DNA of 32,000 nt from Candidatus Electronema halotolerans (lineage in GTDB: Bacteria; Desulfobacterota; Desulfobulbia; Desulfobulbales; Desulfobulbaceae). The stretch lies in contig OW818675.1 in assembly GCA_942493095.1 (NCBI GenBank), positions 1,560,001 through 1,592,000 of the forward strand, written 5' to 3'. Below the pieces are notes generated by a model. The model was not told where the DNA came from. It saw only the letters and a list, made by a program, of their open reading frames with translations, and ran no database searches. The position numbers and the translations under genes were made by a program. Each line of letters starts with the position of its first letter. The first letter of the stretch is position 1. Of this stretch, positions 20,201-20,892 are shown piece after piece.

Positions 20201-20727
20201 GTTGGGTTGCCAAAGACCCGATCTTGTTTGCCGGCGGGGATGTGGATTTGTATGGGTATGTGTTGGGGGATCCGGTTGGGTTGGTTGATTCGTGGGGGCT
20301 TACAGCAGATCCTCCCCTGAAACCACCGATCAACGATCCAGACTGGGGAAGGTATTCTAACCGTTGGGGTGAGGAACTTTTTCATTGTGGATATCAATGT
20401 TATATCGAAAATCGAGAGTGTATTGGTGATAGTTGTGTAAACGATCCAGTTCAGGAAGCCTGCTATGATGAGCAAAACAGACTTGTTGATGATAATCATC
20501 AATTCAGTGGTTGCAAAGGGACAGCTGATCAATACCCCCAAACTGATGGGTGGAATCACACCGTTAATGATAGTGGTGGAATTGTTGCAAATGGCTGGAA
20601 GGCGTTTGTAACATCACGTAACCATAGTAATTATGTGAGAAGGATAGGGCGTGAGCGAGCAATAAATGACAGCATTAGGAGCTATAAACAGCATAATACT
20701 TGGGGTTCTGATAGTGGAGGGTTATAG
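14218..20727 (+). CDS. Giant secreted RHS/YD-repeat polymorphic-toxin-like protein with teneurin-like architecture
   Basis: 2169 aa with a GTG start and a Sec signal peptide (MKKTILLSLAAMLCCFLLPSAWA). It has three Ig-like repeats of about 75 aa and a carboxypeptidase-regulatory/TTR-like segment (RVTVHDHPEYGTVKTAADGRFTLPAEGGG). A TSP3-like Ca motif (DTDSDGVADALDSDGDGQPND) follows, then 6 NHL blades and many YD repeats. The RHS core ends RDYAPAIGRWVAKDPILFAGGDVDLYGYVLGDPVGLVDSWGL. Confidence 0.95.
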   Translation: MKKTILLSLAAMLCCFLLPSAWADKTDSSLLRMFMMIRTASSPKVSLSAEPAAIKLGGTATLTWISKNADTVSIDNGIGAVDLNGSQSVAPTTTTTYTITAAGAKGTVTDSVTVTVLQPPVVSLAADPTSIIEGSSSTLTWTSTNADSVSIDNNIGTVAASGTRSVSPSADTTYKITATGPGGTASDTAAITVSPADAPAITISAASESIALGASTELSWQSQNVDNISIDNGIGEVAANGSQSITPQHTTTYTITGSGDKGTVSAQVTVQVTGNPAAPPEGSFGEQYEDLMPPDATIDEYDAKRFSLITGMVHDLQDAPLEDVRVTVHDHPEYGTVKTAADGRFTLPAEGGGTMTIAYKRAGYITAHRQVYVPWNDIAVAETVQMLVEDSAATQVTFDGNPATIATHVNTPVTDEFGSRSATIVFQGDNMAHLVDEQGNIIQDLPNITARATEFKTQESMPAVLPPNSAYTYCTELSVDGAARVRFDKPVTVWVDNFLKFDVGEKVPVGYYNRDRGVWVPSENGLVVKLLDTDSDGVADALDSDGDGQPNDLNNNGSFADEVIGLEDASRYVPGKEFWRVTVTHFTPWDCNWPYGPPADATGPNPNGVPDAEEPINDAAEEPINDANNGLKKDDTDCNGSYIKKRGRIVHEDIPIPGTGMTLHYASNRVEGYKQVITVPASGDTVPDSLKSIIVEVKLAGRTLTQTLEPQPNKQAQFVWDGLDYLGREAGTVQADVAVGFVYDAVYYTARNDVANAFAQAGSEVSGIRARQEVTSWQRFQLQISAGKAAGNIAEGWSLSDHHVLGRGAAYLNKGYGSFLENNNTQIITTVAGNGFYGSSGDDGPATEAKLNNPSGVATDKAGNIFIADRGNHRIRKVDTNGIITTVAGTGSEGYNGDNIPAIDAKLAEPRDVVVDQLGNIFIAEYDNHRIRKVDTNGIITTVAGNGATGNGGDGGRAIDAELQNPYQLAVDESGNIFIGHNTSPISRYIRKVDTNGIITTITKPYKIGGLAVDQAGNLLFANSMFARISKIDSSTGIMTTVAGNGSGDYSGDGGPATEASLHNAVDITLDQAGNLFIADYDNKRIRKVANGIISTVAGNGSSGSEGDGGPAAAASLFEPNRVAVDHEGNIFIAEYGHHRIRKVAAASAVFRSHLMEAGDIPFADSNGLGYIMSAAGLHKKTIDLDSGLVVQNFAYDSDNNLISITDQFGNVTAIARDANGTPTAIVSPDGLRTELHINADKQLAKIVYPDSSAYNFTYSPDSLMTVETEPNGNRFEHHFDANGKIAEVLDEEGGQWQYSRQRLANGEVRIESVTAEGNRTVNLDTNASTGAFSTVTIDPSGNESSFSRSADGLSETRELSCGMTSWTDYGLDAEYKYKVAQSTGTQSPAGLTKVAQIDKTYQDTNTDEIPDLIKETLSRDGRLTTLVHNTLIGEKTVTTPKGRKVTAKYDPATLLTKSVEIPGLSPTNYAYDSKGRLTSVTTDERTAAFSYNAQGFLASQTDPEGRTTSYSHDAVGRVTKITRPDASTVQFSYDSNGNMTALTNPSATNHLFDYNKVNKQNAYNTPISGSYSYVYDKDRRLKRTDFPSGAQISNIYTDNLLTQTQTPEGNIDYTYLCSSKVGSISKGGETIAYNYDGSLLTSESKSGTVNQTLTFSYNNDFDLSAITYAGSTENLSYDDDGLLISSGAYAISRNAANGLPEQVSGNALSRSRTFNGYGELTAENSMVNTQPVNGWSVTRNKNGRILSKTENVNGSTVDYAYSYDNMGRLLTVKKGGTLVEEYQYGLNGSRTHEMNSLKGVSSRDYSYSEEDHLLSAGDVSYAFNADGFLTSKTQGAEITAYNYSSRGELLQVALPDGKSIEYLHDPLGRRIAKKVNGTIVEKYLWLGLTKLMAIYDGSDNLLMRFEYADGRMPAAMTASGATYYLSYDQVGSLRTVADATGSVVKEVSYDSFGTILSDSNSALAVPFGFAGGLHDRDTGLVKFGFRDYAPAIGRWVAKDPILFAGGDVDLYGYVLGDPVGLVDSWGLTADPPLKPPINDPDWGRYSNRWGEELFHCGYQCYIENRECIGDSCVNDPVQEACYDEQNRLVDDNHQFSGCKGTADQYPQTDGWNHTVNDSGGIVANGWKAFVTSRNHSNYVRRIGRERAINDSIRSYKQHNTWGSDSGGL
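14344..15039 (+). repeat. Three tandem Ig-like domain repeats (about 75 aa each) within the RHS protein
   Basis: Each unit carries a recurring V/ISLSA-P--I--G-S-TL-W-S-NAD-VSIDNGIG-V---GS-SV-P---TTY-ITA-G--GT pattern. Confidence 0.8.
16693..17652 (+). repeat. Six NHL-type beta-propeller blades within the RHS protein
   Basis: Six recurrences of GIITTVAG-G--G--GDGGPA--A-L--P--VAVD--GN-FIAD--N-RIRKV. At the DNA level, 16831-16862 and 16999-17030 are identical (32 nt). Confidence 0.85.
20302..20724 (+). other. Variable C-terminal tip (141 aa) after the RHS core cleavage-type motif; unrecognised Cys-rich domain
   Basis: It starts after VDSWGL, the position of the canonical DPxGL motif. The sequence is TADPPLKPPINDPDWGRYSNRWGEELFHCGYQCYIENRECIGDSCVNDPVQEACYDEQNRLVDDNHQFSGCKG..., with 6 Cys. 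Hand-counted GC is 149/360 (41%) for 20341-20700, against 36/60 (60%) for 20161-20220. Confidence 0.7.
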
Positions 20728-20734
20728 TAGTGTA

Positions 20735-20760
20735 GGATGCGTCCAACGCATCTTTCCTTG
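20735..20760 (+). terminator. Weak intrinsic terminator candidate after the RHS gene
   Basis: GATGCG (20736-20741), loop TCCAA, CGCATC (20747-20752), then TTTCCTT. Confidence 0.3.
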
Positions 20761-20802
20761 AGCTCGGTAGGTTGGGGATGAAGAACGACCCCCGATAATT
20801 GG

Positions 20803-20854
20803 CAAAAGGGGACAGATTTATTTTTTTGCAAAAAAATAAATCTGTCCCCTTTTG
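20803..20854. repeat. REP-like perfect palindrome, copy 1
   Basis: CAAAAGGGGACAGATTTATTTTTTT (20803-20827), GC, then AAAAAAATAAATCTGTCCCCTTTTG (20830-20854). The arms are 25/25 complementary. Confidence 0.8.
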
Positions 20855-20892
20855 GTCGCGTCCCTTTTGAGTGAGGAGGAGGAATAAACAAA

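Follow-up and report, generated by a model that had tools for sequence, protein, structure and literature searches.

The polymorphic toxins of the rearrangement hotspot (RHS)/YD type, which include Rhs proteins and TcC-like cocoons, are built from a YD shell, a core that runs to a (P)xxxxD(P)xGL junction and a variable C-terminal tip that is set off by a sharp compositional break. Asp-dependent self-cleavage at the core end is established for Rhs and TcC proteins, and a polymorphic-toxin cargo domain is operationally defined by its use in varying combinations with delivery modules. Bacterial teneurin-like YD proteins and the metazoan teneurins have in common a TTR/carboxypeptidase-like domain, an NHL propeller, a YD shell, an Rhs core and a toxin-like tip, although the teneurins, which are type II membrane proteins, end in an ABD and a Tox-GHH nuclease-like domain. 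In the Desulfobulbaceae, a YD protein of Desulfurivibrio alkaliphilus has been described as teneurin-like with 'an uncharacterized toxin domain' (PMC6297184). Here we analyse a teneurin-like YD/RHS gene in a relative from the same family, Candidatus Electronema halotolerans (assembly GCA_942493095.1, contig OW818675.1, positions 1,560,001 to 1,592,000 of the forward strand). This whole stretch of 32,000 nucleotides is called the window below, and all coordinates count from its first letter.

The subject of this report is the C-terminal tip of the encoded RHS protein. The protein resembles the RHS/YD polymorphic toxins in its YD shell, its core and the compositional break before its tip; it differs from them in that no immunity gene adjoins it, that its junction reads DSWGL instead of DPxGL and that it is predicted to be exported by Sec. 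From the teneurins it is set apart by its signal peptide, its N-terminal Ig-like repeats and a different tip. We consider it about 65% probable that the tip is the exchangeable cargo of a Sec-exported teneurin-like polymorphic toxin, that it belongs to an unnamed family of ~110 aa, and that the locus is immunity-less and has probably been remodelled.

A swapped tip and its protein family

The carrier is encoded by one intact frame of 6.5 kb without interruption (Table 1). Its N-terminus, as read from the translation, is a typical Sec signal peptide, and Pfam and NCBIfam searches recovered the TTR domain, the NHL propeller, the YD shell and the Rhs core in the order met in teneurins. In Pfam these were TTR_TEN1-4 (PF25020, aa 301-386, 2e-19), TEN_NHL (PF25021/NHL, about aa 840-1150, 1.6e-35), TEN_YD-shell (PF25023, aa 1171-2000, 2.1e-42) and RHS_repeat (1.6e-36); in NCBIfam they were YD_repeat_2x (3.1e-26) and Rhs_assc_core. 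The model TIGR03696 was matched over its full length by aa 1950-2028 (profile positions 1-76 of 76; score 65.8 bits, cut-off 32.5). Therefore, the core ends at ...DPVGLVDSWGL (...GDPVGLVDSWGL) and the tip starts at nucleotide 20302, which is where an earlier note on this stretch had placed the boundary when it read VDSWGL as a Pro-to-Ser variant of DPxGL. Among 100 close relatives this position reads DP in 85, DS in 6, DA in 3 and other residues in 6, so DSWGL is a natural minority variant in which the Asp is retained. The junction, and with it the cleavage site, is predicted to lie directly after L2028.

The tip departs from the core in composition. The fall in GC from about 60% to about 41% behind the core, which the earlier note had counted by hand, was reproduced exactly on recomputation (0.600 at 20161-20220 and 0.414 at 20341-20700), and the GC of third codon positions (GC3) falls with it: the last 600 nt of the core have a GC of 0.573 and a GC3 of 0.695, and the tip has a GC of 0.430 and a GC3 of 0.312. 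The maximum-likelihood change point lies at ~20375, and only 3.4% of all 423-nt segments are as AT-rich as the tip. The low-GC block outlasts the tip: it extends over ~1.38 kb (20302-21679, GC 0.44) and takes in the intergenic stretch and the gene that follows. Its right edge lies at the start of gpsA, marked by a second change point (~21697) and the return of a host-typical GC (0.585). Relatives whose cores are 60-85% identical to that of the window's RHS protein carry unrelated tips; the closest cores are those of Candidatus Electrothrix and other Thermodesulfobacteriota, and the tip is different in each. The break in GC and GC3 and these unrelated tips on similar cores support the view, already taken in the earlier note, that the C-terminal tip was swapped onto the RHS core and is a module of foreign composition.

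Two features of the relatives are recorded here in their own right. A C-terminus of the form ...[P/A/N]-C-x(0-4), for example DNPCK, ETPCK, NTPCP or QKPCEK, is present in 55 of the 120 closest teneurin-like RHS relatives (P0001-P0120), on tips that are otherwise unrelated and often Gly/Ala-rich and hydrophobic; it looks like a common C-terminal processing or sorting signal, and the window's tip does not have it. The teneurin-like gene is called as separate TTR, NHL and YD-shell fragments in L001 (Ca. Electrothrix gigas, 5518-11488) and in L051 (4010-11806), which points to frameshifts or assembly errors in those metagenome-assembled genomes (MAGs).

The tip contains six Cys and the motifs FHCGYQCY and GCKG, as had been described, and the claim that it matches no known toxin family also held: searches against Pfam, NCBIfam and PDB sequence profiles gave no named family, and the tip family stands outside the named Tox and Ntox families. 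The PDB profile matches to TFPI and Rab7 (E about 0.2) represent chance only, and a word-indexed search of 5.8 billion proteins with the tip returned no match. The tip had been called unrecognised, which is correct as far as a name is concerned; however, it is not an orphan. An exhaustive HMMER (phmmer) scan of 1.84 billion cluster representatives yielded 213 matches at E<=1e-3, of which 114 reached E<=1e-10 and the closest 1.1e-44, and most of them cover tip residues 1-110. One candidate relative, P0054, was discarded: it covered 94% of a query made of core and tip, its own tip looked phospholipase A2 (PLA2)-like (CxxHDxCY), and a comparison of tip with tip gave an E of 0.15, so the two are unrelated.

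In alignment A1, the family consensus reads CPxxPPxxDPxWxxYxGxxxxFHCGYxGYLENRxPxPxxPxxECFYDExGxLVDxxHxYxGCxGTPDQY(7-8)HTxxDSGGI. Invariant are two His, an Asp and two Gly (FH(C) and H-x3-D-x-GG), with Glu, Asp and His positions that are near-invariant, and the motifs E, EC.YD, LVD..H and G.GT(P/A)(D/N)QY are likewise nearly constant. The window's tip keeps every invariant and near-invariant residue other than Cys; its minority residues within the motifs are an Ala where EC.YD has its near-invariant Cys (EACYD) and GTA for GTP. The constellation of His, Asp and Glu suggests that the domain depends on a metal.

The Cys residues of the family are gained and lost in pairs. Both C7 and C50 occur in 154 of 164 aligned members, neither in 3 and one alone in 0; for C30 and C68 the counts are 150, 12 and 2, and for the optional C34 and C51 they are 15, 147 and 2. 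Therefore, we take the Cys pairs to form two to three disulfides, and this covariation supports the disulfide-bonded payload that the earlier note had considered. A Zn(Cys)4 site was weighed as an alternative and rejected, because the pairs are lost independently. The window's tip has C30-C68, C34-C51 and an extra local pair (REC...DSC); C34-C51 is also carried by its two nearest relatives, and the extra pair by the nearest of them. A domain stabilised in this manner would fit with action outside the cytoplasm.

The domain lies at or near the C-terminus of its carriers and also occurs in stand-alone or orphan fragments. At least 36 of 173 members follow directly on the end of an RHS core and at least 18 of 173 on an eCIS_core-like HExxH region, and Pfam searches with ten members revealed carriers with eCIS_core, Tox-PAAR-like, PAAR_motif, Gp5_trimer_C, DUF4280, and RHS_repeat with DUF6531. 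A genome scan with a narrower alignment (A3) located the domain at 39 loci, which span Bacteroidota, Actinomycetota, Acidobacteriota, Cyanobacteria, Chloroflexota, Gammaproteobacteria, Rhodobacterales, Gallionella, Ca. Methanoperedens and one Methanobacteriota MAG. The occurrence on RHS, PAAR, VgrG/gp5 and eCIS_core carriers argues that it is a polymorphic-toxin cargo domain.

Members of the family appear in a machine-learning list of predicted toxins associated with extracellular contractile injection systems (eCIS) from 2024, where they are annotated as DUF4157 only (PMC11297309), and a protein of Methanoperedens nitroreducens (locus L010) is among the high-scoring predictions (PMC11297309). 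The domain is not present in the experimentally validated toxins EAT14-17, nor in the supplements of the PT1-9 toxin-discovery preprint or of the 2021 eCIS paper. As a separate observation, a further ~155-165 aa follow the domain in P0141, P0145, P0152, P0161, P0165, P0178, P0200, P0224, P0226, P0227 and P0251. Such regions are found on eCIS_core-linked members and on some members without a recognised carrier, and by eye those of P0141, P0145, P0152 and L010 have common motifs (...ITSRVYD...NWT(F/Y)...HLNV(I/M)G(G/S/A)(I/L)LSSI...).

The downstream membrane protein and the question of immunity

The neighbourhoods of all retrievable loci of the tip family were compared, among which 11 are RHS-linked or orphan. 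At 10 of these 11, an open reading frame (ORF) of 107-126 aa lies directly 3' of the toxin gene, with its start -25 to +38 nt from the toxin stop codon and with three to four long uncharged hydrophobic segments in its hydropathy profile. Such ORFs are present in genomes (L009, L011, L025, L041-43, L044), in metagenomes (L047-L050, the subfamily nearest to the window's tip) and in L052, which holds the closest relative of the window's tip (65% identity). Several pairs of them are similar to each other at E 1e-5 to 1e-17 (L048-L011, 2e-10; L048-L041, 2e-8; L050-L047, 2e-17), and Pfam gave no match for them. We regard this ORF, with its three to four transmembrane (TM) segments, as a candidate immunity protein, and a partner of this kind in the relatives suggests that the toxin acts near the cytoplasmic membrane. 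The GC layout of L052 is like that of the window (core 0.54, tip 0.40, downstream ORF 0.25), and its DNA is 70% identical to the window's over 20323-20607 only and unrelated beyond that.

No homologue of the membrane ORF was found in the window, where a six-frame hidden Markov model (HMM) search gave best E values of 0.07-0.8 and tblastn with each ORF a best E of >0.1. One match to the immunity HMM, at 28385-28801 (E 0.069), was rejected, because it has a high compositional bias and corresponds to an unlikely ORF that, at its 3' end, runs into an alcohol dehydrogenase gene on the opposite strand. The 165-nt spacer behind the toxin gene (20728-20892) is too short for an ORF of 107-126 aa and holds only ORFs of 31 aa (+) and 69 aa (-, overlapping the palindrome described below); the 69-aa ORF has no Pfam match, and neither frame through it is hydrophobic. 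The earlier note was right in this respect, as it had seen no immunity ORF downstream. Because the relatives of the window's tip carry a coupled membrane ORF and there is none here, the usual partner of the lineage is missing at this locus.

The spacer had also been described as a hairpin and a repetitive extragenic palindromic (REP) palindrome. Both are present, and the palindrome proves to be one of two that flank a gene for a REP-associated tyrosine transposase (RAYT), with which they make up a REP-RAYT-REP unit. The RAYT protein matches Pfam Y1_Tnp (PF01797, 4.1e-15) and the NCBIfam equivalog NF047646 REP_Tyr_transpos (83.1 bits, cut-off 80); its gene has a strong Shine-Dalgarno sequence of its own (GGAGGAGG) and is also low in GC (0.452; GC3 0.409). 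The 32-kb window contains no copies of the palindrome beyond these two, and the RAYT protein itself is absent from the collection searched. The 171-nt region 20722-20892 folds with a z of -7.3 against shuffles. Its hairpin, just past the stop codon, is terminator-like without a proper U-tract and was not called by the terminator scan.

From these findings we infer how the system may work. The RHS protein would be exported by Sec with the tip domain stored within the YD shell, and Asp-dependent self-cleavage between the Leu of DSWGL and the following Thr would set the domain free. The freed, oxidised domain would then act in a target cell as an enzyme, probably a metal-dependent one, within an oxidising compartment and at or close to the cytoplasmic membrane. 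As in its relatives, the tip would have arrived as an AT-rich module; here the usual immunity gene is absent, and the REP-RAYT-REP unit of similar low GC stands in its place. The producer may be protected by encapsulation of the toxin or by an immunity gene outside the 32-kb window, or immunity may have been lost when the 3' flank was remodelled. To judge from its sequence, the tip ORF itself looks intact and functional.

Several points weigh against this reading. The toxicity and the immunity ascribed to the family are argued from association, and it is unusual for a globular domain that is polar and disulfide-bonded to be paired with a tiny polytopic immunity protein, a type better known for pore-forming toxins. 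The window's tip is without the otherwise near-universal C7-C50 pair, which is likewise absent from its two nearest relatives only. The eCIS_core-linked genes, which make up most of the genome matches, stand in tandem effector arrays without a small coupled ORF, and in those eCIS_core-linked members that carry the extra ~160 aa the domain may not be the killing module. At L053, a teneurin-like RHS gene is followed by a gene of the PF00144 beta-lactamase family and not by a 4-TM ORF. That the REP/RAYT unit displaced a gene is a supposition. The genes around the closest cores, those of Ca. Electrothrix gigas L001 and contig L051, are unrelated to the window's and fragmented, and no syntenic genome was found for the tatD-RHS-gpsA locus.

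The neighbour at L053 is of some interest in itself. This PF00144 beta-lactamase/penicillin-binding protein (PBP)-like gene (GCA_964389925.1, 9749-11209) lies 46 nt 3' of a teneurin-like RHS gene whose protein of 2362 aa ends in a tip of the family described here, and its product has 478 aa as called, or 486 aa from the first TTG, with a Tat-like signal and a hydrophobic C-terminal tail by eye. The product may provide immunity in another form and so hint at a cell-wall target, or it may be unrelated.

If the usual partner is missing, the immunity gene could lie elsewhere in the genome, as an orphan or in an immunity island, and the locus could be fully functional. The tip ORF is intact with every invariant residue kept, the portion of the genome examined is 32 kb, and orphan immunity genes are common in RHS and contact-dependent inhibition (CDI) systems. 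However, the window holds no membrane-ORF homologue, and in all other RHS-linked loci but one the ORF is immediately adjacent to the toxin gene; we rate this explanation as somewhat unlikely. Immunity elsewhere and a remodelled locus had both been offered in the earlier note, and they fit the REP-RAYT-REP finding better than its first option, a payload that needs no self-protection, which is weakened by the membrane ORF at 10 of the 11 loci.

That first option would apply if the payload were aimed at eukaryotes or at a target absent from the producer, in which case the missing immunity would be the normal state. It draws on the members linked to eCIS_core/DUF4157 and their arrays without a small immunity ORF, on the finding that eCIS effectors are often aimed at eukaryotes (PMC8213781, PMC11297309), and on L053, which is also without a 4-TM ORF. 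In addition, the carrier studied here is a Sec-exported teneurin-like protein and not a type VI secretion system (T6SS) spike, and the 32-kb window contains no T6SS genes and no PAAR or VgrG context. Nevertheless, the coupled membrane ORF is found at the nearest relative and at four metagenome loci of the RHS-linked or orphan group, and tightly coupled downstream ORFs are a hallmark of bacteria-directed toxins. An anti-eukaryotic target is thus possible but not favoured for the RHS-linked branch, and as an account of this locus we find it distinctly unlikely.

Table 1. Features of the RHS gene and its 3' flank (window coordinates; a dot marks features without a strand)
Feature	Position	Strand	Basis or remark
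Teneurin-like YD/RHS protein, 2169 aa	14218..20727	+	ORF list and translation
Parts of the RHS protein, in order			Signal peptide (VKKTILLSLAAMLCCFLLPSAWA, followed by DK), Ig-like repeats, TTR/carboxypeptidase-regulatory-like domain, NHL propeller, YD shell, Rhs core, tip
Rhs-associated core, aa 1950-2028	20065..20301	+	TIGR03696; end is KDPILFAGGDVDLYGYVLGDPVGLVDSWGL
DSWGL, in place of the autoproteolysis motif DPxGL	20287..20301	+	Sequence; Pro to Ser, Asp kept
C-terminal tip, 141 aa (aa 2029-2169)	20302..20724	+	Conserved cargo domain is the first ~110 aa (to about 20631)
Hairpin, 8-bp stem, 3-nt loop (GGAUGCGU-CCA-ACGCAUCC region)	20735..20753	+	Fold of 20722-20892
REP palindrome copy 1	20801..20857	.	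Perfect 26-nt arms (52 nt) at 20803-20854
RAYT (IS200-like Y1 transposase), 235 aa	20893..21600	+	Pfam, NCBIfam
REP palindrome copy 2	21572..21626	.	Identity with copy 1, 89-94%; overlap with the RAYT stop codon
gpsA (glycerol-3-phosphate dehydrogenase)	21680..22702	+	Domain matches

The rest of the window is occupied by housekeeping genes (tatD, BrkB-like, SLT/LysM, gpsA, BatA-D-like, RNase Y and TyrRS). Downstream of gpsA, at 22732-27337, a run of BatA/VWA-TPR, BatD and TPR genes resembles an aerotolerance operon. A full-length 6S/SsrS RNA lies at 8621-8794 (-; Rfam RF00013, 56 bits against a gathering threshold of 46.4). A second low-GC block, at 29921-31700 with a minimum of 0.41 over 1.4 kb, contains the genes for a type I restriction-modification specificity subunit (30417-31697, -) and for a protein of the 23S rRNA intervening-sequence family (30013-30363, -).

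Structure of the tip and a possible AMOP connection

An AlphaFold2 (AF2) model of the tip, computed with the family alignment, has a mean confidence (pLDDT) of 92.2 and consists of strands and helices that are short, apart from a long C-terminal helix (residues 97-138), which is predicted for the part of the tip behind the ~110-aa domain. With this model, the top Foldseek match in the PDB was the TSR-AMOP structure of human ISM1 (9c6t_B; E 0.2, probability 0.84), with 69 aligned columns, a root-mean-square deviation of 3.6 Å and a TM-score of 0.33. The AMOP fold is a half-barrel of five strands at the core, flanked by helices. When a canonical member was modelled in a form that leaves out the C-terminal helix (pLDDT 87.6), 9c6t was not recovered at all, and the AMOP link was therefore downgraded to a lead. 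Foldseek against viral structures gave nothing below E 1.

The sequence comparisons touch the same domain. AMOP was the sole Pfam family matched by more than one member, by 3 of 66 with a best E of 0.011 and 14.5 bits against a cut-off of 25, and residues 156-188 of P0123 align with positions 63-95 of the Pfam model; the window's tip itself has no match to Pfam AMOP (PF03782) at E<=1. The family HMM scored the ISM1 AMOP sequence, which is 100% identical to 9c6t, at E 0.0025 as a single target, and hhalign gave a probability of 0.02. In both, ECFYD..LVD...G.GTPDQY is placed on HCCYGD..LIT...GAGTPNL. By eye, beyond the program alignments, the HxxxD of ISM1 (HYKVD) lies 13 residues after the Thr of GTP and that of the family 12. 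The disulfides of AMOP are C1-C8, C3-C6, C4-C9 and C5-C7 (PMC12000326); C3-C6 and C5-C7 plausibly map to C7-C50 and C34-C51 of the family, and C1-C8 and C4-C9 have no counterparts. The likeness to AMOP (PF03782; ISM1, ISM2, SUSD2, MUC4) is a weak, consistently registered match over CxY(D/G)...L(V/I)...G.GTP(D/N). AMOP differs in having four conserved disulfides, and ISM1 is without counterparts of the FHC His, E39 and H69 (A1 numbering). None of the papers in the library searched connects AMOP with polymorphic toxins.

It is a tentative proposal, with the odds somewhat against it, that prokaryotes have in the tip family their counterpart of metazoan AMOP (ISM1/2, SUSD2, MUC4). If it is true, AMOP would be a second animal extracellular domain from bacterial polymorphic-toxin cargo, beside the teneurin YD shell and Tox-GHH; in the window a teneurin-like scaffold would be its carrier, and the bacterial His/Asp/Glu site, together with the membrane immunity partner, would be the first testable clue to an ancestral AMOP activity. 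Confirmation of the lead would tie an extracellular domain of animals that is poorly understood to the weapons of bacteria.

The AMOP lead also permits the view that the tip is not a toxin at all but an extracellular binding or adhesion module, related to metazoan AMOP, on a teneurin-like adhesin, for which no immunity would be expected. The ISM1 match of model 1, the three AMOP-matching members, the similar HxxxD spacing and the two disulfides that map speak for it. We nevertheless hold it to be very improbable: all AMOP scores are below accepted thresholds, the match was not recovered with the second model, and a toxic cargo is favoured both by the membrane ORFs coupled to the domain and by its fusion to carriers of the PAAR, VgrG and eCIS kinds. 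Homology to AMOP alone would not exclude toxicity in any case, as the precedent of the teneurin Tox-GHH domain illustrates. Decay of the locus, with the tip left as a relic whose delivery or cleavage has ceased, might be read from the Pro-to-Ser change in the cleavage motif, the loss of C7 and C50, the missing immunity gene and the mobile-element-like neighbour, but it appears equally improbable, as the ORF runs through its 6.5 kb without a break, 6% of the relatives also have DS and the catalytic Asp is kept, the loss of C7/C50 is common to the two nearest relatives and is offset by C34-C51 and the extra Cys pair, and all invariant residues are kept.

Comparison with known systems

The exchange of an RHS tip with a break in GC is textbook biology and as such ordinary. 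Novelty is confined to three points: a cargo family that had not been described, with a membrane protein as its candidate immunity partner; an immunity-less copy beside a REPtron; and the possible AMOP connection. The family is large and taxonomically broad, has no Pfam model and uses at least six kinds of delivery module. With its definition, the catalogue of toxin/immunity pairs would grow by one, and a new target in the cell envelope could come into view.

The eCIS toxins with an N-terminal DUF4157/eCIS_core are comparable in that the domain of the tip family follows eCIS_core in many members. They differ from the RHS protein described here in their carrier, often in the extra ~160-aa C-terminal region, and in having no small immunity ORF.

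Small polytopic membrane immunity proteins are known from the pore-forming colicins, from CdiA-CT of E. coli EC93 with CdiI and from the P. aeruginosa Rhs toxin Tse5 with Tsi5. The immunity candidate of ~110-125 aa with three to four TM segments, which directly follows the toxin in the RHS-linked relatives, is like these proteins. In contrast, the toxins of those systems are hydrophobic or amphipathic and insert into membranes, whereas the tip domain is polar and disulfide-bonded and has an enzyme-like His/Asp/Glu signature.

Lastly, the RAYT gene of the window compares with REPtrons, in which a RAYT gene lies between REP palindromes: NF047646 is matched above its cut-off, and two palindromes of ~55 nt flank the gene. 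The unit differs from them in that it has two REP copies only in 32 kb, abuts a toxin tip and has a low GC like that of the tip. An immunity-less copy beside REP/RAYT would be a small natural case of a strain that tolerates a toxin gene without a linked antidote.

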